DNA from: a virus
Lineage: Duplodnaviria > Heunggongvirae > Uroviricota > Caudoviricetes
Length of the DNA stretch: 14,205 bases
Reading direction: 5' to 3' (one strand)
Virus record (IMG/VR): IMGVR_UViG_2541047928_000015
Part shown: positions 1 to 10,693 of the stretch, in pieces
Numbering within the stretch: the first letter of the stretch is position 1
How the letters are laid out: every line of letters starts with the position of its first letter
Program-made: the position numbers and the translations under genes
The notes under the pieces: model-generated
What the model was told of the DNA's origin: nothing
Seen by the model: only the letters and a program-made list of their open reading frames with translations
Databases searched by the model: none

Positions 1-462
1 ATGACGGCGAAAACAGCACCGAAAGTCACGCTGTGGGAGTTCTTCCAGCAGTTAGGCAAAACCTTCATGTTACCCGTGGCATTATTGTCGTTCTGCGGCA
101 TTATGCTCGGCATTGGTAGTTCTCTTAGCAGCCATGATGTCATCACCCTGATCCCGGTCCTGGGCAACCCCGTGTTGCAGGCTATCTTTACCTGGATGAG
201 TAAGATTGGCTCGTTTGCTTTTAGTTTCCTGCCAGTCATGTTCTGTATCGCCATCCCGCTGGGTCTGGCACGCGAAAACAAAGGCGTAGCGGCATTCGCT
301 GGCTTCGTCGGTTATGCGGTAATGAACCTCGCGGTAAACTTCTGGTTGACCAATAAAGGCATTCTGCCAACCACGGACGCCGCAGTTCTGAAAGCCAATA
401 ATTCACAGGTGTTTTTTCCCATCCTGTGGTTTCCTTGGCGTTTTCTAGGTTTTTTCAGATAG
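1..462 (+). pseudogene. malX: PTS system EIICB component, glucose/maltose family (MalX-like), N-terminal ~135 codons only; frame then runs into unrelated sequence and stops after 18 more codons
   Basis: Translation MTAKTAPKVTLWEFFQQLGKTFMLPVALLSFCGIMLGIGSS... reads as the N-terminal membrane domain of a PTS EIIC protein and matches my recollection of E. coli MalX. An EIIC domain needs ~350 aa, so a 153-aa product is truncated. The C-terminal 18 residues (SQVFFPILWFPWRFLGFFR) are not transporter-like. Sequence character changes at about nt 406. Confidence 0.55.
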
Positions 463-810
463 TTGCATTTTTTAAAAAGCATCCTAAGTTCGATCTCAGT
501 GTCTATCTGGGGCCTATTTCTGTCCCATATATGCCCCAAAAAAACTCCTCAACAGATAAGTAGTTTTTTCATGGAGTTACGCGTAAAATCAATAACGGCT
601 GGAAATCATTCAATACTCGCACTATCGAAAAATTTACCAGCCAACCGCAGCACGTTCTTGCATAAGGCGTGTCTGCGGTTTTTCAACTATTCAGATACAT
701 CACTCCCATCACATTCATTCCTCCGCATCAAAGGCATATAGGCTATATCACCTTGATATTTTTCTTCTTCAGATAAAAACTGTTATCTATGTATACTTTT
801 AAACCCAATC

Positions 811-823
811 CGTGTAGAGTCTC
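811..823 (+). repeat. Direct repeat copy 1, CGTGTAGAGTCTC (extended imperfect match over ~21 bp, 801-823)
   Basis: Seen directly. Same 13-mer with one mismatch recurs at 1719-1731 in the same orientation; a gapped alignment of the extended 21-bp region gives about 17 of 21 matches. Confidence 0.4.
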
Positions 824-1002
824 TGCATAAGATAGTTTGCAGTTGCCACTTCAGCTTGCGCCATAAACCGCCTGATTTTTGCCGCCATCTGTTAGCATTC
901 CTGTATACCTGAAACGACAATGTTTATCTACGAACTTTAAGAACACCCAGGATAAAAATTGTCAACTATATCATATATAACACATTACTAATTCGAGGCT
1001 AT

Positions 1003-1116
1003 ATGAACAGCATACTGATAATCACTTCGCTCCTTATCATATTCAGCATTTTTAGTCATGCTCTAATAAAATTAGGGATTGGCATATCCAATAACCCAGA
1101 CAAAACCGATGTATAA
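1003..1116 (+). CDS. Hypothetical 37-aa hydrophobic peptide ([37 protein letters not shown]): one predicted TM helix plus polar C-tail
   Basis: ATG at 1003 preceded by GAGG (995-998); TAA at 1114-1116. Below the ORF-track size cut-off, so found by hand. AT-rich DNA yields Ile/Leu/Phe-rich ORFs by chance, hence low confidence. Confidence 0.3.
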
Positions 1117-1184
1117 GTCAACATATCCTGAATCAGACATACAATATCGCAATGAAAATCAATAATATTTTAAGGAATATATTC

Positions 1185-1418
1185 ATGAAATCAAAAGACA
1201 CCCTAAAGTGGTTCCCTGCGCAGCTTCCTGAAGTCAGAATTATCCTAGGGGATGCTGTAGTGGAAGTAGCAAAACAGGGAAGACCTATCAATACCAGAAC
1301 ATTGCTTGATTACATTGAAGGAAACATAAAGAAAAAATCATGGCTGGATAACAAAGAATTATTACAAACAGCGATATCAGTTCTTAAAGACAACCAAAAT
1401 TTAAATGGTAAAATGTAA
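1185..1418 (+). CDS. Hypothetical small protein, 77 aa from the SD-preceded ATG (88 aa if upstream ATG at 1152 is used)
   Basis: ORF track 1152..1418. The internal ATG at 1185 is preceded by AAGGAA at an 8-nt spacing, whereas the 1152 ATG has no SD. Very AT-rich coding sequence. I recognise no family. Confidence 0.45.
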   Translation: MKSKDTLKWFPAQLPEVRIILGDAVVEVAKQGRPINTRTLLDYIEGNIKKKSWLDNKELLQTAISVLKDNQNLNGKM

Positions 1419-1583
1419 TATAATAAACTTACTTTTTTATCATTTTTCCACTTTAACAACATTTTGCTCCACTTTTCCACGACCAAACAACTTGAAATCT
1501 GGTTAAAATAACACGCAACACTATTCTTCTTCCTTGAGTCCGCCCGGAACTCGAAAAACAAACCGAGTTAAAGCCATTTTTCA

Positions 1584-1597
1584 CAAAATCGATTTTG
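1584..1597. promoter_or_regulatory. 14-bp perfect palindrome CAAAATCGATTTTG, followed by a second dyad TTTTGG-GTCTCAC-CCAAAA (1594-1611); candidate operator or recombinase-binding site
   Basis: Seen directly in the 317-bp non-coding region upstream of the recombinase gene. The loop heptamer GTCTCAC recurs at 1724-1730 inside the direct-repeat copy 2. Confidence 0.3.
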
Positions 1598-1718
1598 GGT
1601 CTCACCAAAATTACGGGGTTGCATACGCATTCGTTTATTTTCGAACGTGTACATACAAACATGCACAAAAATAATCAAAATTATTTTCTGAGATGCATTA
1701 TGATATGAACACCAATTT

Positions 1719-1731
1719 CGTATAGAGTCTC
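1719..1731 (+). repeat. Direct repeat copy 2, CGTATAGAGTCTC, ending 3 nt before the recombinase start codon
   Basis: Seen directly; pairs with 811-823. Confidence 0.4.
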
Positions 1732-1734
1732 ACT

Positions 1735-2325
1735 ATGTCTCGAATTTTTGCTTACTGTCGGATATCAACGCTGGATCAGACCACCGAAAATCAACGCCGG
1801 GAAATCGAAAGTGCAGGTTTTAACATCAAATCTCAGCAAATAATCGAAGAACACATTAGCGGCTCAGCAGCAACCAGTGAGCGTCCTGGTTTTAACCGGT
1901 TGCTTGCTCGCCTGAAATGTGGTGATCAATTGATTGTGACAAAACTGGATCGCCTTGGTTGTAATGCAATGGATATCAGGAAAACAGTGGAACAACTGAC
2001 CGAAACAGGTATCAGAGTGCATTGCTTAGCATTGGGGGGCATTGACCTGACCAGTCCAACAGGAAAAATGATGATGCAAGTAATTTCAGCAGTCGCTGAA
2101 TTTGAACGAGACCTTTTACTTGAACGCACTCATTCCGGGATAGTAAGAGCCCGCGGCGCAGGGAAACGTTTTGGTCGACCACCTGTGTTAAATGAAGAAC
2201 AGAAACAGGTGGTATTCGAACGAATTAAGTCAGGTGTAAGTATAAGTGCCATTGCCCGGGAATTCAAAACCTCGCGGCAAACCATTTTAAGAGCCAAAGC
2301 AAAACTTCAGACACCTGACATATAA
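1735..2325 (+). CDS. Serine recombinase of the resolvase/invertase family (Pin/Hin/Gin-like), 196 aa
   Basis: N-terminal catalytic motif YCRISTLDQ (Ser10), DRLG motif, E..ER acidic patch, GRPP linker and C-terminal helix-turn-helix. Position beside the tail fibre genes is the classic Pin location in e14/Rac-type prophages. Only about one-third identity to Gin/PinE by eye, so invertase versus resolvase is unresolved. Confidence 0.9.
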
Positions 2326-2422
2326 AAAATAATCTCGGTGTGAGATGCTTTACGTCTTCCAAGCCCCCTTCCTTGCCGTAAATGGAAAGATACATCTAAT
2401 TATAGAATTTATATGTTTTACC

Positions 2423-2542
2423 CTACGGCAGTGCTGGCCATTCAATATCCTGTGCAGTTGACGTATCAACACGGTTCAGCAATACCCGATACTTTTTCCA
2501 TGCTTCCAGCAACGAGATTTCTTCCTCCGTTGCATATACAGC
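2423..2542 (-). pseudogene. tfa: Fossil 3-prime end of tail fibre assembly gene tfa (last 39 codons, no start codon)
   Basis: Minus-strand translation [39 protein letters not shown]-stop is nearly identical to the lambda Tfa C-terminus as I recall it (...[34 protein letters not shown]...). It is preceded in frame by TGA at 2543-2545, and upstream sequence shows no Tfa similarity in any frame I read. Confidence 0.7.
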
Positions 2543-2552
2543 TCACCTTTTT

Positions 2553-2876
2553 TCACCCACGATTAACCAACAGCCAGACCAGCAGACACGCCACCACCGG
2601 CACAGCAAAATCTATCAGGCTTGCCACATCCCAAACACGCGGATCAAAACCGCCCCACCACGGCATGTTAATCCGCTTGCAATGCCCGAACATTTCAATC
2701 CAGCGATATTCTGCCTGGGTGTGTTCCCGCGCAATGAAGAATGTACAACCGGCTATCGCCCCGTAAGCCCAGTTTCCGGTAAAAAGACCAACCAGTACCT
2801 GCGCAGCCACAGCACAAAGCGCATGAAGAAAAGGTGTTATATCCATTTTCATCCTACCCAATAAAACGGGGCGCAT
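2553..2876 (-). CDS. Hypothetical small membrane protein, 107 aa, 2-3 predicted TM segments
   Basis: ORF track. Hydrophobic stretches ITPFLHALCAVAAQVLVGLFTG / AYGAIAGCTFFIA / VASLIDFAVPVVACLLVWLLV. Starts 12 nt downstream of the orf346 stop, so probably co-transcribed. No family recognised. Confidence 0.5.
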   Translation of the reverse strand: MRPVLLGRMKMDITPFLHALCAVAAQVLVGLFTGNWAYGAIAGCTFFIAREHTQAEYRWIEMFGHCKRINMPWWGGFDPRVWDVASLIDFAVPVVACLLVWLLVNRG

Positions 2877-2887
2877 AGCCCTTAATA

Positions 2888-3928
2888 TTATTTAGACGCA
2901 AGCGTCGCCTCAATTGCAGATAATCTTTGCCTTAATTCTGCGTTTTCTTCTTCCAGTACTGTTATTCTGTCGTCTGACTCTCTGGCTACCTGAACAAGCA
3001 AGCCAGTAACACCAGAATAATCTACTGTGTAATAACGTTCACCTTCTTCACCTTCCGATCCGCTTGCACCGTCCTGATATTTCATTGCGGAACCGACAAC
3101 TTCTGGGATTGCTTCCAGAGCTTCCTGTGCAATGACACCTGCATAGGGCATACCGTTTTCTTTAAGCGTGTATGTATAGCCGTTCATTTTACGGATGCGG
3201 TCGGTTGCATTATCGATCACCTGAATGTTGTCTTTCAGATCCCGGTCGGAATGCTGGTTAAATGCGGTGGCATGACATGCACCATTAACGCTTAACATAT
3301 AGGTGTTATCGGTATTTTTCTGCGCATAGAACATATACGCGCCACCATCAGCACCAACTTCATATACAACCGGACGGGTAGAGTTACCCCACAAACTAGT
3401 AGTAGCGCCAGAATGAGCGGTCCCCTGTGTGTTTAATGTCATGGTTGACCCATGATTGGCATATTTGATTTGTAATGTGTCTGTGCAGTCAAACTTAATA
3501 AGCGCGTTACTTCCCCGCACACCATACGACATGAGACAGTTCCCCATCTTAAGGTAACCATCACTGCCTGGAAAAATTAATGTTCCGCCGTAAAGATCGC
3601 TAAAATCCCAAAAGATACCTTTTGTTCCATTGTGTGTGACAATCCTTGTCATTGTATCTTTTGTACCGTCAATATTTTTTCTGGTGTACATCTCACTATA
3701 AGCGTTTTCGGTTTCTCCTGTCTTATTTGACAAGTGAATCTTACCGCTAAATATAGTTCCAGTGGTCGGCAATGCCTTTTGATCATAGATTACATTGCAA
3801 TAACTATTCCATGTTGTTTTATTGTCTACATATGATTTTGTTGCATAGCTTCCTTGATCAGTTTTTAGTTTACTAACATCGGATTTTAGCGTTTTGATGT
3901 CATCAGGAATTACTGTTTTTGTAACCAT
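2888..3928 (-). CDS. Tail fibre / tail spike-like protein with C-terminal intramolecular chaperone auto-processing domain (peptidase S74-like), 346 aa
   Basis: C-terminal ~120 aa (SDRDLKDNIQVIDNATDRIRKMNGYTYTLKENG ... ITVLEEENAELRQRLSAIEATLASK) has the hallmark S-D-x-x-L-K-x-N-I start and terminal coiled coil of the self-cleaving chaperone domain found in phage endosialidases and the T5 L-shaped fibre. GGAG SD 9 nt upstream of the ATG, lying inside the end of orf89. Lower GC than the J gene. Confidence 0.8.
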   Translation of the reverse strand: MVTKTVIPDDIKTLKSDVSKLKTDQGSYATKSYVDNKTTWNSYCNVIYDQKALPTTGTIFSGKIHLSNKTGETENAYSEMYTRKNIDGTKDTMTRIVTHNGTKGIFWDFSDLYGGTLIFPGSDGYLKMGNCLMSYGVRGSNALIKFDCTDTLQIKYANHGSTMTLNTQGTAHSGATTSLWGNSTRPVVYEVGADGGAYMFYAQKNTDNTYMLSVNGACHATAFNQHSDRDLKDNIQVIDNATDRIRKMNGYTYTLKENGMPYAGVIAQEALEAIPEVVGSAMKYQDGASGSEGEEGERYYTVDYSGVTGLLVQVARESDDRITVLEEENAELRQRLSAIEATLASK

Positions 3929-3940
3929 TGTCTTACTCCA

Positions 3941-4210
3941 TTAAGCCCATGTCCTTACATGCTGATCTGTCGTAATGAAAGGCATTAAAGAAGATATGTT
4001 TTTACTGCTATCAACAATCCTCATGTTTACGAAAAAACCACCGCGATCAATGCCTGTACATCTTTCGTTTTCTGGCTCCTCGTAATCGATAATGCAGCCA
4101 ATAACATCAACAAGAACCCCGTTTTCTTCTTCAAGACTGAACAGGCCACTGTCATATACAATTGCGTTAAACTGTTCTCTGTTATCGAATCGTAATGTTA
4201 TATCTCGCAT
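3941..4210 (-). CDS. Hypothetical acidic 89-aa protein, translationally coupled to the side tail fibre gene (possible fibre adaptor or assembly factor)
   Basis: ATG overlaps the stf stop (TAATG on the minus strand at 4212-4208). No family recognised. Confidence 0.6.
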   Translation of the reverse strand: MRDITLRFDNREQFNAIVYDSGLFSLEEENGVLVDVIGCIIDYEEPENERCTGIDRGGFFVNMRIVDSSKNISSLMPFITTDQHVRTWA

Positions 4211-6567
4211 TATACGTATTCCTTAAGCTGCGTATCTGACAATGCTCTGTTCCAGAAACGGAGGTTTTTTATATGACCATTAAGGTGTCGTAATCCTGTC
4301 GTCGTTTGCCCCCCGATACGAATCACGGCTGCTTCACGAATATATTTCCATACTGTTTTTGTTTCAGCGCTTATATGCTTATTTGCAAATGAGCATGTCA
4401 TGCCGTCAGCCTTAACCCTGAATCCCATAACGAGATCCCTTACTCCGCATGATTCATATACACGTCGGTTAGCCCCGCCTATATCGCAATACGAATAACC
4501 GTCCTGACTGATAGTTCCAGAAGAACCAAACCCCATAATAAATGGGCCTCCGGACTGGTGATTTTCTGAATCAATGACACGCGGTGCAGCATTATGAGAA
4601 ATAAACCAGTTTTTATGGACTTCCACCATGAACGTAAAAGGCATGGTATACATATTTTTCATCAGCGGAAATTTACATAAATCTGATGCACGAGTCGCTG
4701 GCTCTGTTGTCGTTATGATGAAGGAAGTTGCACAAGCACCATACTCGAATTGCGGGGTGGTTACTTCTATCCAGTCACCTGTTGCAAAAGCTCCCACAGC
4801 TCTGTCGGCTGCAATTTGCAGCTGCGTACCAACCATTCCCCATTCTGGCAGACATTTCAGTGTTGCCTGAAAATATATCCATCCACTACCAGGGTCGATT
4901 TCAAAGTTTGCTGTTAATAGCTGGGCATTGCCACCAGTAATTTGTAGTTCATGGGTCTGTAATGACAAATAGGCGTCGCAAAGGAAGGTGTATCCTTCCG
5001 AGTTATACCGTTCAAAACGGATACGTGCGCGAACATTGAGATCACTTCTTACCCTGAACGACGCGGTAACATACGGACCTTTACTGTACTGATCATCGCC
5101 AGTCACATCTATGCCTTTGTTACCAGCAACTGTGCATATATTTCTCCCTGTTGTCGTTCCTGCTATATCGCTTCCTACCGTGAAACGTCCATATTTAAAC
5201 TCAAATTCATCTGTTGATGATGTTACAGATATACCACCGCTTTTATTCCACGCATCAGGATTAAAACTATTTACGAACATGTTTGTTCGCTGATTCTCTA
5301 TCAGCAAACCATATTTTTCAAAACGAGGAACGTTATTACCTGCCACGGTAATATGCCCGGACTTATCAATATACGTTGCAGATGAAGCCCGGCTAAATTG
5401 GCATATGCCATTAACTGGCACAGTGATTTCATCGCTGCCGATGGTTATTGTTTTATACCCCGGCGCATACCCTGTTATCGCTTCCAGAGAATCATTCAAG
5501 GGTAGCCAGATATCAGGAAGCGGAGGGACAGAAGCAGGATCAGCGGCATCTTCTGCAATCCGGGCTGCATTCTCTGCTCTTGTTGCGGCTGACGTTGCTT
5601 CTGTCTCGCTGGCTGCTGCTTTTGTTTCGCTCGCCTTTGCGTTAGTTTCACTGGTTTTTGCAGCTTTTTGGCTATTAGCTGCCGCTGTTGCAGAACCAGC
5701 TGCAGCACTCTCGCTTTCGGCTGCTGCATCCTGACTGCTTTTCGCCGCAGTTTCGCTGGCTTTGGCATTCGTTTCGCTGGTCTTCGCTGCCGTCTGGCTG
5801 GACTTTGCGTTAGTTTCACTCGTCTTCGCAGCTTTCTGGCTGTTAGCCGCAGCAGTTGCTGATCCAGCTGCTGAAGTCGCAGAACCGGCTGCCGCGCTCT
5901 CGCTTTGGGCTGCTGCAACCTGGCTGTTTTTTGCCGCAGTTTCACTGGCTTTGGCATTCGTTTCGCTGGTCTTCGCTGCCGTCTGGCTGGACTTTGCGTT
6001 GGTTTCGCTCGTCTTTGCGGCTGTCTCGCTGTTTTTCGCGTTGGTTTCTGATTTTTTGGCTGCTGTCGCGGAGTTTGCCGATGCAGTCTGCGAGGACGCT
6101 GCCGCCTGTGCGCTGTTAGCTGCATTCGTTTCTGAGGTTTTCGCCGCGTTCTTCGATGATGCCGCTGCAGTTTCGGATTTCTTTGCCACCGCTGCGCTCT
6201 GAGAGGCGGCTTCGGCGTTGCGTGCCGCTTCTTCCACCATTGCCTCAAAACGACGCAATGCCTCCGGCATGACATCATCTTCCGTCATGGCACCGAGAAA
6301 ATCATTCAGCGTACCTGGTCTGGAACCTTCATAGACGGTAATGATCCCGGCATGTGAAGGCGGAAAACCTTCAACCAGCAGGATAACGCTATACTGGCCA
6401 TACTCAACGTCCATGCTGTAACGCCCGGCTTCATCCGGATTTTCAGAGGCCACCGTGTTCACCAGTACAGTGGTGCTGTTACGCTTTGCCTTCAGTTGAA
6501 TAGTGCAGTTCTGTATTGGTTTTCCCGCACCATCTTTCAGCACACCTGAGATTTTTACTGCTGCCAT
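4210..6567 (-). CDS. stf: Side tail fibre protein: lambda Stf-like N-terminal anchor and Ala/Ser/Thr/Lys repeat shaft, non-lambda distal region ending in a ConA/LamG-like lectin domain
   Basis: N-terminus MAAVKISGVLKDGAGKPIQNCTIQLKAKRNSTTVLVNTVASENPDEAGRYSMDVEYGQYSVIL is near-identical to lambda Stf as I recall it. C-terminus ...RIGGQTTTGLRHLNGHIKNLRFWNRALSDTQLKEY matches the LamG-type signature (G-x-I-x-x-hRhWNRALS-x-x-Q/E-h). Start placed at ATG 6567 (GGAG 5 nt upstream) rather than the track's GTG at 6573, which lies inside that SD. Confidence 0.9.
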   Translation of the reverse strand: MAAVKISGVLKDGAGKPIQNCTIQLKAKRNSTTVLVNTVASENPDEAGRYSMDVEYGQYSVILLVEGFPPSHAGIITVYEGSRPGTLNDFLGAMTEDDVMPEALRRFEAMVEEAARNAEAASQSAAVAKKSETAAASSKNAAKTSETNAANSAQAAASSQTASANSATAAKKSETNAKNSETAAKTSETNAKSSQTAAKTSETNAKASETAAKNSQVAAAQSESAAAGSATSAAGSATAAANSQKAAKTSETNAKSSQTAAKTSETNAKASETAAKSSQDAAAESESAAAGSATAAANSQKAAKTSETNAKASETKAAASETEATSAATRAENAARIAEDAADPASVPPLPDIWLPLNDSLEAITGYAPGYKTITIGSDEITVPVNGICQFSRASSATYIDKSGHITVAGNNVPRFEKYGLLIENQRTNMFVNSFNPDAWNKSGGISVTSSTDEFEFKYGRFTVGSDIAGTTTGRNICTVAGNKGIDVTGDDQYSKGPYVTASFRVRSDLNVRARIRFERYNSEGYTFLCDAYLSLQTHELQITGGNAQLLTANFEIDPGSGWIYFQATLKCLPEWGMVGTQLQIAADRAVGAFATGDWIEVTTPQFEYGACATSFIITTTEPATRASDLCKFPLMKNMYTMPFTFMVEVHKNWFISHNAAPRVIDSENHQSGGPFIMGFGSSGTISQDGYSYCDIGGANRRVYESCGVRDLVMGFRVKADGMTCSFANKHISAETKTVWKYIREAAVIRIGGQTTTGLRHLNGHIKNLRFWNRALSDTQLKEYV
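5580..6125. repeat. Imperfect tandem DNA repeats (three ~120-190-bp units on a 21-bp / 7-codon periodicity) inside the stf shaft-coding region
   Basis: Seen directly: 5747-5823 is almost identical to 5936-6011, and 5630-5750 closely resembles 5800-5936. Protein shows repeating KTSETNA/KSSQTAA/KASETAA heptads. Confidence 0.7.
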
Positions 6568-6578
6568 ATCCACTCCAC

Positions 6579-6604
6579 AAAAAAGCCCGCCTGAACCGGC
6601 GGGC
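6579..6604 (-). terminator. Rho-independent terminator downstream of lom (minus strand)
   Basis: Perfect 7-bp GC-rich stem (6585-6591 / 6598-6604), 6-nt loop, followed on the minus strand by a run of six U (6584-6579). Sits between the lom stop and the stf SD. Confidence 0.7.
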
Positions 6605-6631
6605 TGTCATAACACTGTGTTACCTGGCTAA

Positions 6632-7231
6632 TCAGAATTTATAACCGACACCCACGATGAAACCGTCAGTGCGCCAGTCGCCACTGCCGGAGCCTTCATA
6701 AGCAATATCAATGGCCACGGATTCGGTCGGGTTAAACTGCACGCCAGCTCCCCACGCCAGAGACGTGTTGCTGTGGCGATCGTCATCACTTCCGGTCAGC
6801 ACATCGTGCGTTTTCCCCTTGTTGTCAGTTACGCGGAGATAATCCCCGGAGAACGTCGAAACACGGCTGTAAGCCACACCTGCCATCGCATAAGCACTGA
6901 ACCATTCATTCACGCGTACAGACGGCCCCGCCATCATGCTGAACCAGCGGTTACGCACTGAATCTTCATGCCAGCGGGTATCGCTGTAATGCGTTTTTTG
7001 CTCATCTTTGGCATTGGCATAACTGAATGACGTCACCAGCCCCAGCGTGTCCGTAAATTCATAACGGTATTTCACGTTAATGCCCTTCAGGTCATCGTTG
7101 CCGGGCATATCAGTATGGGTCTGAAGATACCCGGCGCTTAGTGTGGACTGATGCTCTGCTGCGCTCGCTGGCGTACCAGCGGCGACCAGCCAGACTACTG
7201 TGGACAGAATAACAGCACATAATTTACGCAT
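6632..7231 (-). CDS. lom: Lom outer membrane protein (Ail/Lom/PagC beta-barrel family), signal peptide present
   Basis: 199 aa. C-terminal IAYEGSGSGDWRTDGFIVGVGYKF and internal motifs (KGINVKYRYE, SAYAMAGVA) match lambda Lom. Same position as in lambda, between J and stf. Confidence 0.95.
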   Translation of the reverse strand: MRKLCAVILSTVVWLVAAGTPASAAEHQSTLSAGYLQTHTDMPGNDDLKGINVKYRYEFTDTLGLVTSFSYANAKDEQKTHYSDTRWHEDSVRNRWFSMMAGPSVRVNEWFSAYAMAGVAYSRVSTFSGDYLRVTDNKGKTHDVLTGSDDDRHSNTSLAWGAGVQFNPTESVAIDIAYEGSGSGDWRTDGFIVGVGYKF

Positions 7232-7252
7232 AATTACCTCTCGCTTTTCTGC

Positions 7253-7278
7253 AAAAAAAAGGCACCATTTCTGGTGCC
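7253..7278 (-). terminator. Rho-independent terminator between J and lom (minus strand)
   Basis: Stem GGCACCA (7272-7278 / 7261-7267) with a 4-nt loop, followed on the minus strand by eight U (7260-7253). Confidence 0.7.
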
Positions 7279-7297
7279 CGTATATGGGTTATAAAAT

Positions 7298-10200
7298 TCA
7301 GCTGATACTGATGCCTGCGGTGGCTTTCTTCATCACCACAACCAGCAAATCGCTGATACTTGCTGTGGGATACCAGTCATTTACCAGCCATGCTGACACC
7401 GAAAACTCCAGCGTCATGTGACCGTGACCGGCAGGCATATCAATAACGCCACTGTAAATCAGCGTATTATCCAGCGCGGTACGGTTATAAATTTCAGCAC
7501 CGTTTTTCCGCACTATCAGACGGCATGAGGAGTAAATATCAGTATGCTCTCTCTCATGTTTAGCGCCGCTGAATGCCACCGCCGGAATAACAATCTGCCG
7601 GTCAAACGGCTGATCGTCATAAACCCTGACGGTAATGGTCCCTGATGGCCACCGTTCCGGTGCACGGGAGTCCCGGGGGAAAGCTTTGCCCACTGTTTTA
7701 ACGAGATCGCCTTCAATCTGGTTCGCGGACAGTTTTCCCAGAACCCGACAGTTCTCGTTAATCGTGACGTTGTTGAGCGTCCCGGAGTTCGCATTCACGT
7801 TACCGCTGATATCGGCATTTTTCGCCGTCAGCCGCCCATCCGGTGTCAGGGAAAATGCCGGTGGATTTCCACCACTGGTAATGGTGGGGGCCGTCAGGCG
7901 TTTCAGGAACACGTCGTTCATGAATATCTGATTGCCCTGCGCCACAAACATCGGCGTTTCATTCCCGTTTGCCGGGTCAATAAACGCGATACGGTTAGCG
8001 GCAACCAGAAACTGGCTCAGTTTGCCTTCCTCCGTGTCCTCCATACTGAGGCCAATACCCGCGACATAATGTTTGCCGTCTTTGGTCTGCTCAATTTTGA
8101 CAGCCCACATGGCATTCCATTTATCGTTGGCATCCTTCCACTCTTTCGAAAACTCATCCAGTCTGCTGGCGTTATCCTCCGTCAGATCGACTTTTTCCAG
8201 CAGCTCCTTGCCGAGATGGGATTCGGTTATCTTGCCTTTGAAAAAATCCAGGTAACCTTCCGCATCATCGCTCGCCCGACCGACGGACTCCACGAATGCC
8301 GATTTGCCAACGGTGTTCACACTGCGGATATAAAAGTAATAATCATGGCCCGGTTTGATATTGATACTGGCGGCTATCCAGTACAGCCCCGTGCCAAGGT
8401 AGCGGGCTGTGGTTTCAACCTGCCTGATATCGGTAATCCGCGTTTCCGAGAACCAGAACTCAAACTGTACCGTCGGATCATAAACCGCAAGATGCGGCGT
8501 GGCGGTGATCTGAAAATAGCCCGGCGTCAGCTCAATCCTCGACGGTGCTGCCGGTGCGGCAATCCGGAACGATACCGACGCCGGATCGCCCTGCTGCCCC
8601 CACGCATTTACCGCCCGGACTGTCAGCCTGTAGTTCCCCAGCGCCAGCTGCGTGAAGCGGTATGTGGTTTCCGCCGTCCGGGCCGTGCTGACCAGCCGCT
8701 CACTGCCGTCATCCGCTGCCACGGTCAGGCGAAGCATAAAGCTCACCCCCTTCACCACCTTCGGCGTATCCCAGCGTGCCAGCACCTGATACTCCCCGCT
8801 GTCTGCGGTGACTTCGGCAGTCAGGTGCTGCACCGCTGGCGGCGTGACACCATTCACCGTGCCGCTCTGGTCGCCGTCAAAGTGCGCCCCGTTATCCACG
8901 ATGGCTTCTTTTTCCGGTACATGCTGCACGGCGGTGATGGCATACGTGCCGTCGTCGTTCTCACGGATACTCACGCAGCGGAACAGGCGCTGGCGCAGCG
9001 TCGGCAGCTTCAGCCCCCATACGCTGTATTCAGCAACGCCGTCAGGAACACGGCTCACTTTCACCTTCACGCCGTCGGTGACGGACTGGACCTCCACGCT
9101 GACCGGATTGCCACTTCCGTCAACCAGGCTTATCAGCGTGGTACCGGAGGATGGCAGCGTGATTTCACGGTCGAGCGTCAGCGTCCGGGTCTGGCTGTTC
9201 ACAGCCAGCACGCGCCCGCCGATGCTGATCCCCGCATAGTCATCATCGCAGATTTCAATAACATCCCCCGGCACATGGCGAAGCCCTTCGGCACCCACGC
9301 TGAAATCCACGGTCTGCGTCTCCAGCAGCTCCGTTTTAATCAGCCACAGCCCGGCGCGGTGTGCCTGCCCCCGACTGGTACAGCCAAAGGCATCCATCTT
9401 CGTGACGTTACGACCGTAACGGGCAATGGCCTGCGTGTCCTCCACAAGCTCTGTCGCCGTCTCCCAGCCGTTATCCGGGTCAATCCAGTTCACCTCAACG
9501 GCATTATGACGGTCCTTCAGGGCGCTGAAGCTGTAGCGGAACGGCGCGCCATCATCCGGCATCACCACATTACTGCGGTTATAGGTCCACACCTTATCCG
9601 ATGGCCGGTCCTGCACGAACGTCAGCGTCTGCCCGTTCCATACCGGCATACAGCGCATCGCCGAGCAGAAATCACTGAGCACATCCCACGCCTTGCGCTG
9701 TGTGGTCAGGTACGCATTACAGGCGATGCGCGGCTCCGTGCCGCCAAAGCCGTCCGGCACCGACTGGTCGCAGTACTGGCCGATGACATACAGCGCCCAT
9801 TTATCCACATCCGCCGCACCAAGACGTTTCCCCATGCCGTAGCGCGGATGGGTCAGCATATCCCACAGACACCAGGCCATGTTGTTGCTGTATGCCGGTT
9901 TTAACGTTCCGTCCCAGATACCGCTGTATTGTCGCGTCTGCGGGTTATAGTTCGACGGCACCTGCAGAATGCGCCCGCGAAGATGATAATTACGACTCAC
10001 CTGCTGACTGCCGAACTGCTCCGAGTCCACCTGTACGCCAACCAGTGCCGTGTTCGGGTAGCACTGTTTCACATCGATGATTTCGGTGTATGACGACCAG
10101 AGCGTTTTGTTCTGCAGCTGGTCTGTGGTGCTGTCCGGCGTCATCCTGCGCATCCGGATATTAAACGGGCGCGGCGGCAGGTTATCCACCACCACCGAGG

Positions 10201-10693
10201 CCAGATACTGCGAGGTGGTTTTGCCCTTAATGGTGATGTCTTTTTCCGTCACCCAGCCACCGTTACGCTGTATCTGAACCAGCAGGCGGACTTCCGACGG
10301 ATTCCTGTCACCCTTTGAGGTGGTTTCCACCAGTGCCTGCACGCCGAAAGTAAAGCGCAGACGGTCGATGTTTGCCGACGTGATGGTGCGGGTGATCGGC
10401 ATGTCATATTTCACTTCCATACCCAGCACCGTCTCGGAGCCGGAGGATTCAAACCCCTCCGGCGGAGTCTGCTCCTGCTCACCTGCCCGGAACACCGCCG
10501 TAACACCGGAAATGTTGGTATTCCCTTCACTGTCCAGCACCGGCGTACTGTTCAGCAGCACGCTTTTTAACCCATCCACCGGACCTTCAATCGGCCCTTC
10601 GCTGATGACATCGATCACACTCAGCAACTGCGTGGATTTCAGGTTGTCCTTCGCTTCGCGCGGGGTATGCCCCTTACTGCTGCCTTTACCCAT
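7298..10693 (-). CDS. J: Tail tip host specificity protein J (central tail fibre), 1131 aa
   Basis: Length and sequence along the whole protein resemble lambda J, including the C-terminal end ...[32 protein letters not shown]. Confidence 0.97.

Follow-up and report, generated by a model that had tools for sequence, protein, structure and literature searches.

Mosaic side tail fibre locus of a lambdoid Escherichia coli prophage: a probable composite fibre with two receptor-binding proteins

The DNA stretch analysed here, IMG/VR virus record IMGVR_UViG_2541047928_000015 (Duplodnaviria; Heunggongvirae; Uroviricota; Caudoviricetes), represents the tail end of a lambdoid E. coli prophage with the tail genes on the minus strand, and its entire length of 14,205 nucleotides is referred to as the window. 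Our analysis concerns the side tail fibre locus of this prophage, which consists of the gene for the side tail fibre protein Stf, three downstream genes (orf89, orf346 and orf107) and a remnant of the tail fibre assembly gene tfa. We consider it probable that this locus codes for a composite side tail fibre carrying two receptor-binding proteins, which was assembled by modular recombination. Its mosaic origin is apparent from the confinement of lambda similarity to Stf residues 5–275 and the tfa remnant, from a low-GC island and from the breakpoints at the joints of its parts. A sequence-only reading of the same DNA had already proposed a host-range mosaic, in which Stf combines an anchor and shaft of the lambda type with a distal module of foreign origin and is followed by a second fibre of the self-cleaving type, and this core of the proposal was borne out.

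The tail genes are arranged in the minus-strand order H (partial), M, L, K, I, J, lom, Stf, orf89, orf346, orf107 and tfa remnant, and those from H to orf107 are all intact open reading frames. The stf gene (window 4210–6573) starts with GTG and codes for a chimeric protein of 787 amino acids, consisting of a lambda-type anchor and shaft and a foreign distal module, which aligned with its residues 4–787 to positions 1–793 of the 793 positions of phrog_1419. The stop codon of stf overlaps with the start codon of orf89 (3941–4210) in the sequence TAATG, so that the two genes are translationally coupled, and a gap of only 12 nt separates orf89 from orf346 (2888–3928), followed by orf107 (2553–2876) and the tfa remnant (2423–2539). 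The gene order, the coupling and the chaperone domain of orf346 thus correspond to those given in the sequence-only reading. Window 2400–6600, from Stf through the tfa remnant, is 100% identical to the genome of E. coli MS20659 (NZ_CP082073). The RefSeq annotation of this strain contains the same genes, including a pseudogene for a 'tail fiber assembly protein, missing N-terminus', and names Stf a 'prophage tail fiber N-terminal domain-containing protein'.

Residues 1–135 of Stf (6169–6573, minus strand) comprise a lambda-type collar (anchor) domain, which attaches the fibre to the tail tip, and a linker. Pfam family PF08400 matched residues 5–134 with an E-value of 6.3e-66 and 220.9 bits (cut-off 26.6), the first 128 amino acids show 82% identity to lambda, and residues 5–97 matched the collar chain of Ur-lambda Stf (PDB 9e7m) at E 8e-49, with most residues being identical. 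In Ur-lambda, 12 copies of Stf residues 1–94 assemble into a collar where gpV meets gpM, and a coiled-coil shaft extends from it (PMC12617516). The PF08400 domain and the gene order J-lom-stf identify the protein as a lambda-type Stf by its N-terminal anchor. Residues 136–345 (5539–6168, minus strand) represent a shaft rich in Ala, Ser, Thr and Glu, which is built from units of 21 nt (7 aa) of the repeat families D1–D3. Comparing Stf with lambda by tblastn, we obtained a match of residues 5–275 at 58% identity and none past residue 275, and at the nucleotide level the similarity breaks off at window 6215 and reappears only in 2433–2534. Because this match ends at residue 275 and only a start-less 3' remnant of tfa is present, Stf does not qualify as a full-length orthologue of lambda Stf. 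The repeat shaft extends to about residue 345, and the non-lambda part of the protein begins at about residues 300–345, which agrees acceptably with the sequence-only reading of a lambda-like anchor and repeat shaft without lambda character from about residue 330 onward. The shaft also contains a tandem duplication of 189 nt (5677–6054), the copies of which are 85% identical and which begins exactly where the high identity to the lambdoid phage 2G7b ends. This suggests that the shaft repeats serve as recombination sites and as a source of fibre length variants.

The outer part of Stf (residues 346–787; 4213–5538, minus strand) is a foreign distal module of ~440 aa, containing a beta-sandwich domain of the RcGTA head-spike-fibre type and a C-terminal domain that is possibly ConA/LamG-like. 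NCBIfam model NF048003 ('GTA head spike fiber') matched Stf residues 424–629 with 47.9 bits against a cut-off of 36, which places Stf among the proteins with a GTA head-spike-fibre domain, and a profile of the module family matched the RcGTA head fibre protein Rcc01080 (PDB 6tb9) at E 1.2e-9. The head fibres of RcGTA are known to attach the particles to capsular polysaccharide (PMC7296036). At the extreme C-terminus, the Laminin_G_3 family (PF13385) matched only the last 40 residues and stayed below its cut-off (20.4 vs. 27.6 bits). An AlphaFold2 model of the module from a 32-sequence alignment showed a mean confidence score (pLDDT) of 50 and was confident only at module residues ~91–267, which form a beta sandwich; its C-terminal 175 residues stayed below a pLDDT of 35. 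In Foldseek searches against the PDB, carbohydrate-binding modules, lectins and phage fibres matched weakly (TM-scores <0.3), which we regard as supportive only. From the NF048003 match above the cut-off, the profile match to Rcc01080, the capsule attachment of RcGTA and the weak structural matches, we infer that the module is a presumed glycan-binding receptor domain, which most likely recognises a surface polysaccharide. It presumably also serves as a docking platform for the second fibre. The term 'lectin-ended' used for Stf in the sequence-only reading is plausible but weakly supported: the NF048003/RcGTA match is above threshold, and the Laminin_G_3 match does not reach its threshold. An assignment of the module as a beta-helix depolymerase was discarded, because the matches to PF13229 (12.9–15.2 bits vs. 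a cut-off of 25.9) represent noise.

The module is portable and terminal. A tblastn search with its 442 amino acids retrieved 218 phage records at 33–54% identity, including Drexlerviridae, Nonagvirus (JenP1/JenP2), T5-like phages, Vequintavirinae and many lambda-like phages, and an exhaustive HMMER scan of a large protein collection returned 2027 clusters of 50% identity (E ≤ 0.001). Those of the 150 listed matches that cover the full module have it at their C-terminal end. The anchors to which it is fused in this collection are of the lambdoid type (PF08400) as well as of the P2 type (PF12571+PF03406), and it occupies the C-terminus of fibre proteins of T5-like phages, Vequintavirus, Drexlerviridae and Nonagvirus.

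The small acidic protein encoded by orf89, a match to phrog_1361 (E 1e-30), is the partner of the distal module in every phage lineage examined. A database search with the single sequence retrieved only 4 fragments, whereas a profile from six family members yielded 341 matches. Genes for phrog_1361 proteins are located directly 3' of the module in four phages of different groups, namely phage 21, 2G7b, the Vequintavirus JeffSchatz and the T5-like phage IrisVonRoten, and they accompany the module with or without a second fibre gene downstream. A protein of ~92 aa is encoded in the matching position in swan01 and JenP1, with the same TAATG-type coupling and spacing. The divergence of orf89 is at least as high as that of the module, with ~30–33% identity to homologues whose modules are ~43–50% identical, and the homologue in VogelGryff lies under features annotated as 'putative lateral tail fiber chaperone'. 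The AlphaFold2 model of orf89 (pLDDT 66) shows a small alpha/beta fold, for which Foldseek found no match below E 0.1; Pfam and NCBIfam searches gave no match for the protein. We read orf89 as probably the dedicated fibre chaperone or assembly factor of the module, or a small adaptor, and would functionally replace Tfa.

The next gene, orf346, codes for a second short tail fibre with a C-terminal S74 domain, which aligned to phrog_4563 over residues 1–346 of 346. Peptidase_S74 (PF13884) was detected in residues 227–278 with 52.5 bits (cut-off 22), and the cleavage motif S-D-x-x-x-K is present at Ser227 (S227-DRDLKDN). By domain and motif, the protein belongs to the fibres and spikes with a C-terminal S74 intramolecular chaperone, and the respective region aligned with the chaperone region of S16 gp37 (PDB 6f45). 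Residues 228–346 (2891–3247, minus strand) are assigned to this chaperone domain, with predicted release by self-cleavage after Ser227. The opposite end of the protein, residues 1–37 (3818–3928, minus strand), is 54–100% conserved in second fibres of lambdoids, JenP1/JenP2 and Drexlerviridae, where it is always encoded downstream of the module and the small protein, and the first 17 amino acids are 71% identical to the start of the second fibre of IrisVonRoten. The middle part (residues 61–225) is most variable, with 85% identity to PhiR11_1 and 71% to 2G7b, and resembles the T4 gp34 repeats and the P2 H fibre. Such a pairing of a conserved N-terminus and a variable body is typical of proteins in which an attachment peptide carries a receptor-binding part. 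Because this N-terminus occurs in phages with different tails, only the module and/or the phrog_1361 protein come into question as a shared partner, and orf346 probably docks on Stf and/or orf89 via its conserved 37 aa. An arrangement of this kind appears in an AlphaFold-Multimer model of IrisVonRoten by the authors of the BASEL collection, the legend of which describes a second fibre attached to a proximal fibre with a protruding galectin-like C-terminal domain (PMC11990801, Fig 12B). Fibre-on-fibre attachment is also backed by genetic evidence for LtfA/LtfB of phage DT57C (PMC4728585, PMC10713586).

The last complete gene of the locus, orf107, codes for a small membrane protein with two strong hydrophobic segments, and the phage 21 record annotates 2 transmembrane domains. 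Because its alignment to phrog_1443 (E 1e-57) begins at residue 11 and RefSeq uses the same start, the true start is probably M11 (window 2846), resulting in a protein of 97 aa. The gene was present in 1886 of 5426 complete E. coli genomes (35%) at ≥90% nucleotide identity, often in more than one copy, and is 92–94% identical in phage 21, 2G7a, 2G7b and the PhiR phages despite their different modules; it is absent from the fibre loci of the virulent phages examined. We therefore assign orf107 to the conserved right flank of lambdoid phages, outside the swapped low-GC block. Pfam and NCBIfam contained no match for it. A defence function of orf107, orf89, orf346 or the neighbouring invertase gene pin was considered and is unsupported, as PADLOC returned no match for any of them; expression of orf107 in the lysogen or an exclusion-type role is a guess of low confidence. 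A distant homologue (37% identity) is encoded in the Halomonas phage phiHAP-1 (3001–3306), an unrelated temperate myovirus, directly after the genes for a tail fibre and a tail fibre assembly protein, and the orf107 family may be linked to fibre loci beyond E. coli.

Beyond orf107 lies the fossil of a lambda-type tfa gene, which had already been recognised as a 39-codon stretch in the sequence-only reading. Window 2433–2534 shows 90% nucleotide identity to lambda 22437–22538, the last ~100 nt of lambda tfa, and 36 of the 39 codons translate to the C-terminus of lambda Tfa at 89% identity; a stop codon precedes them, and the start codon is missing. The remnant, or part of it, also follows orf107 in 2G7b, 2G7a and phage 21. 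Together, orf107 and the tfa remnant form a conserved right flank which is 93–94% identical in phage 21 and Lambda_2G7a, whereas the distal modules of these two phages are only 38–43% identical to the one studied here. The truncation of tfa is thus old and shared rather than private to this prophage.

The mosaic structure is also visible in base composition. The GC content falls from 0.571 in J to 0.441 in Stf 346–787 (0.373 at third codon positions), 0.389 in orf89 and 0.417 in orf346, and these parts constitute a low-GC block at window 2888–5538. Composition across the locus is therefore not uniform, and uniformity was the outcome that would have spoken against a mosaic. The statement of the sequence-only reading that the downstream genes are all lower in GC than J is literally true, but orf107 (0.522) is close to the N-terminal part of Stf (0.519) and to lom (0.533) and lies outside the low-GC island.

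Pairwise comparisons with related phages located the joints. Identity to 2G7b amounts to 97.5% from the end of J to window 5677, at a boundary of the shaft repeats, is lost across the module and orf89, and returns in orf346, orf107 and the tfa remnant; Tritos, HannyBb and PhiR63_1 show the same pattern of partial matches across the cassette. PhiR55_1 is 97.4% identical from J through Stf, orf89 and the first ~14 codons of orf346; its identity breaks at window 3885 and returns at orf107, with the joint at window 2855 just upstream of this gene. Phage 21 matches only in the N-terminus of Stf and in orf107 and part of the remnant (93.7% for the latter region). This defines three recombination joints, located in the shaft repeats, in the first codons of orf346 and just upstream of orf107. 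The exchangeable units resulting from these breakpoints are the module together with orf89, and the body of the second fibre, and they are connected by conserved linkers, namely the anchor and shaft of Stf, the N-terminal peptide of orf346, and the right flank of orf107 and tfa remnant. The sequence-only reading had described a single block with three non-lambda genes, which does not agree with separately exchangeable units and with orf107 as part of the conserved right flank. It had also proposed that the cassette displaced the distal half of stf and most of tfa. The displacement of tfa, leaving a 3' remnant, is correct, but it is not an event private to this prophage, because the junction of orf107 and tfa remnant is common to phage 21, 2G7a and 2G7b.

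The same architecture is already present in sequenced lambdoid phages, and modular mosaics of this kind are normal and recurrent among lateral tail fibres. Each of the four proteins aligned over its full length with a known PHROG family, and at least 80% of the cassette was found in 75 of the 5426 complete E. coli genomes. At the protein level, the module and orf89 share 99% identity, and orf346 shares 90%, with their counterparts in PhiR11_1 and PhiR55_1, two plaque-forming phages for which K-12 and E. coli C served as propagation hosts. Literature searches for the PhiR phage series found nothing, and one combining ECOR, prophage and side tail fibre found nothing relevant. The phage PhiR11_1 (PV340547) contains all four genes in the same order with 94% nucleotide identity over 96% of the cassette, and differs mainly in the middle of the second fibre (85%). 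The phage 2G7b (NC_049954) shows the same four-gene layout after lom/J and differs by another allele of the module and small protein (module 49% identity). Both share a PF08400-type Stf with the module, a protein of ~90 aa, an S74 fibre of ~346 aa and a membrane protein of ~97 aa, and the records of these phages and of related lambdoids (Tritos, HannyBb, PhiR63_1) list the three genes after stf as hypothetical. A three-gene version is present in the classical lambdoid phage 21 (OL657228, CPT_21_22 to CPT_21_24) and likewise in Lambda_2G7a, consisting of a lambda-type Stf anchor with a homologous module (43%), a phrog_1361 protein and a homologue of orf107 (93%), beyond which part of the tfa remnant is retained. 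These phages differ by the absence of a second fibre gene, a shorter shaft, and sitABCD cargo instead of pin downstream.

Outside of the lambdoids, the T5-like phage IrisVonRoten (Bas32) carries in bas32_0022 to bas32_0024 a fibre ending in the module (50%), a phrog_1361 protein (33%) and a second fibre, which resembles orf346 at its N-terminus and likewise has an intramolecular chaperone domain. The trio of module, phrog_1361 protein and second fibre with the N-terminal motif is thus syntenic with the locus studied here, and the same order is found in swan01 and JenP1. IrisVonRoten differs in being virulent, in using a T5-type anchor with a separate LtfC assembly protein, in lacking an orf107 homologue, and in its second fibre, which is a 'T-shaped' protein of 574 aa with two receptor-binding domains. 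Given the PHROG matches, PhiR11_1, 2G7b, the three-gene version of phage 21 and the IrisVonRoten trio, the earlier view of an undescribed lambdoid architecture had to be abandoned. Ur-lambda Stf/Tfa shares the collar domain, the proximal coiled-coil shaft and the position after J and lom; its hinge, gp37-like distal coiled coil, OmpC-binding tip and requirement for Tfa are all replaced here. The LtfA/LtfB system of DT57C follows the same principle, as an anchored fibre carries a second fibre via the N-terminal ~45 aa of the latter and both recognise O-antigens (PMC4728585, PMC10713586). LtfA ends in an S74 chaperone domain of its own instead of the module, and only the low-complexity shaft of our Stf aligned with the DT57C chain PDB 8hqz; we therefore rejected LtfA as a module homologue and regard it as an analogue rather than a relative. 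RcGTA Rcc01080 shares a homologous central domain of ~240 residues and acts in attachment to capsular polysaccharide, but it is a single-copy fibre on capsid pentamers without a coiled-coil shaft, and no structure of its globular part has been solved.

In the fibre we propose, the lambda collar of Stf would clamp the structure to the tail tip as trimers, with the coiled-coil shaft of 7-aa repeats retained and the outer half replaced by the portable module, which would bind a surface polysaccharide. The role of Tfa would be taken over by orf89, acting either as a folding or assembly factor of the module or as a structural adaptor of small size. The product of orf346 would be a second fibre, short and trimeric, docked on the Stf module by its N-terminal 37 residues, with or without orf89, and binding a second receptor with its variable middle; its S74 domain would fold the trimer and then cut itself off after Ser227. 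Side fibres of the virion would then carry two different receptor-binding tips, broadening or retargeting the first reversible step of adsorption, and orf107 would be a small inner-membrane protein from the conserved backbone that lambdoid phages have on the right of their fibre genes. We further suggest, as a tentative extension, that the module, the phrog_1361 protein and the 37-aa peptide may form a portable docking interface shared by lambdoid, T5-like, Drexlerviridae and Nonagvirus phages, allowing any fibre body on any tail, and that orf107 may protect the lysogen, e.g. by blocking superinfection.

Several observations weigh against the proposed composite fibre. The physical link between orf346 and Stf is backed by neither a multimer prediction nor an experiment. 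Phage 21, 2G7a and JeffSchatz carry the module and the small protein without a second fibre, indicating that the module needs no partner fibre and that docking could use another site. The AlphaFold2 model of the module is confident for only ~180 of 442 residues, the ConA/LamG assignment of its C-terminus is below threshold, and a receptor is known for none of the members of the module family. Because orf89 has no recognisable fold, roles as chaperone, adaptor or tip protein are indistinguishable. Finally, the locus is of the Qin type and adjoins an orphan invertase and a truncated malX gene, so this particular copy may be non-inducible.

The same genes could also build a serial fibre, in which the module is a joint or 'knee', orf89 a joint protein like T4 gp35/gp36, and orf346 the sole receptor-binding tip, all arranged end to end. 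The order of a long proximal fibre, a small protein and a distal fibre indeed resembles T4 gp34-35-36-37, the IrisVonRoten homologue is referred to as 'proximal fiber' by the BASEL authors (PMC11990801), its orf89 homologue is annotated as 'tail fiber protein', and the conserved N-terminus of orf346 fits either geometry. We consider this arrangement on balance unlikely, since phage 21, Lambda_2G7a and JeffSchatz keep the module and the small protein without a second fibre, the module is as strongly divergent among phages (38–54% identity) as receptor-binding parts are, and it contains a domain homologous to a capsule-binding fibre. It appears highly improbable that orf346 attaches elsewhere on the tail tip and is merely located next to stf as a second host-range gene. 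In favour of such independent fibres, unrelated receptor-binding genes commonly accumulate in tail fibre loci, and our analysis contains no physical evidence of a contact between Stf and orf346. Against them, all occurrences of the orf346 N-terminal motif that we found, in lambdoids as well as in Nonagvirus and Drexlerviridae, lie downstream of the module and the small protein, and the T5-like IrisVonRoten matches more weakly, in the first 17 residues. As the tail tips of these groups differ, they have no candidate partner in common other than the module and/or the phrog_1361 protein.

Two further explanations concern the history of the locus rather than its geometry. Because the locus is joined to a truncated malX via a Qin-type pinQ-ydfK-ynfT flank, and contains a tfa pseudogene as well as an orphan invertase without inverted repeats, its fibre genes might be functionless cargo of a defective Qin-type prophage. 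All open reading frames from H to orf107 are intact, however, and viable phages carry nearly identical fibre genes, which makes a decaying remnant quite unlikely. A one-off event, by which a single foreign four-part cassette created a new lambdoid architecture in this prophage, would account for the break in composition and for the tfa remnant, both of which are real. It is refuted by the junctions common to phage 21, 2G7a and 2G7b, by the presence of orf107 as a backbone gene in 35% of complete E. coli genomes and by the identical architecture in the PHROGs, in PhiR11_1 and in 75 complete genomes, and we assign virtually no probability to it.

To the left of the locus, adjoining the tfa remnant, lies a gene for a Pin-type invertase with Resolvase and HTH_7 domains (1735–2325, plus strand), which is annotated as pinQ in near-identical genomes; ydfK is located on the plus strand as well. 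Searching window 1400–7300, we found no convincing pair of inverted repeats flanking any fibre segment, nor a second inverted fibre end. A Pin-mediated invertible tail fibre switch of the Gin/Cin/Pin type is therefore rejected, and because no inverted recombination sites or alternative fibre ends are left, the invertase looks like an orphan of an ancestral invertible fibre segment. The left flank (window 1–1700) is of the Qin type pinQ-ydfK-ynfT and continues into ydfJ in most genomes. Here it is joined to the malX gene for a maltose transporter of the phosphotransferase system (PTS), which loses its frame after ~135 codons, and among the best matches listed, strain 2020CK-00188 was the only one to show this arrangement along the whole query, which points to a deletion or rearrangement that joined the prophage end to malX.

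To the right lie lom (6632–7231) and J (7298–10693), both on the minus strand. The J gene is mosaic as well: residues 1–980 are 96.7% identical to lambda J, and the 151 C-terminal residues, the receptor-binding end (7298–7750, minus strand), show 43% identity to lambda and 99% to PhiR55_1 and 2G7b. Together with the distal half of Stf, this renders both host-range determinants of the prophage non-lambda. Strong terminator-like hairpins with T runs are present on the minus strand directly after J (7260–7279) and directly after lom (6584–6605); stf and the downstream genes would thus need read-through, e.g. by late-gene antitermination, or a promoter of their own. A promoter scan yielded a number of sites equal to chance expectation, so an internal promoter for orf107 is unsupported. 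Within the shaft repeats of Stf, we observed alternative-frame and antisense open reading frames at 5496–6278 (minus strand, 260 aa) and 5762–6202 (plus strand, 146 aa), which are most likely artefacts of the low-complexity repeat. A similar-looking case is the 'orf206b' annotated in lambda on the strand opposite the stf shaft of that phage.

The first, reversible step of host recognition is determined by the side tail fibres, and engineers swap them to retarget lambda-based delivery particles. The locus described here reveals no new kind of biology, but represents a clean natural example of where such fibre swaps occur, with joints in the shaft repeats, in the first codons of the second fibre and at the conserved gene on the right. 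It also indicates that the fibre design with two proteins, as known from T5-like phages, can occur on a lambdoid tail. Its practical value lies in the defined boundaries of the module and in orf89 and orf107, two partner proteins that are very common but uncharacterised.

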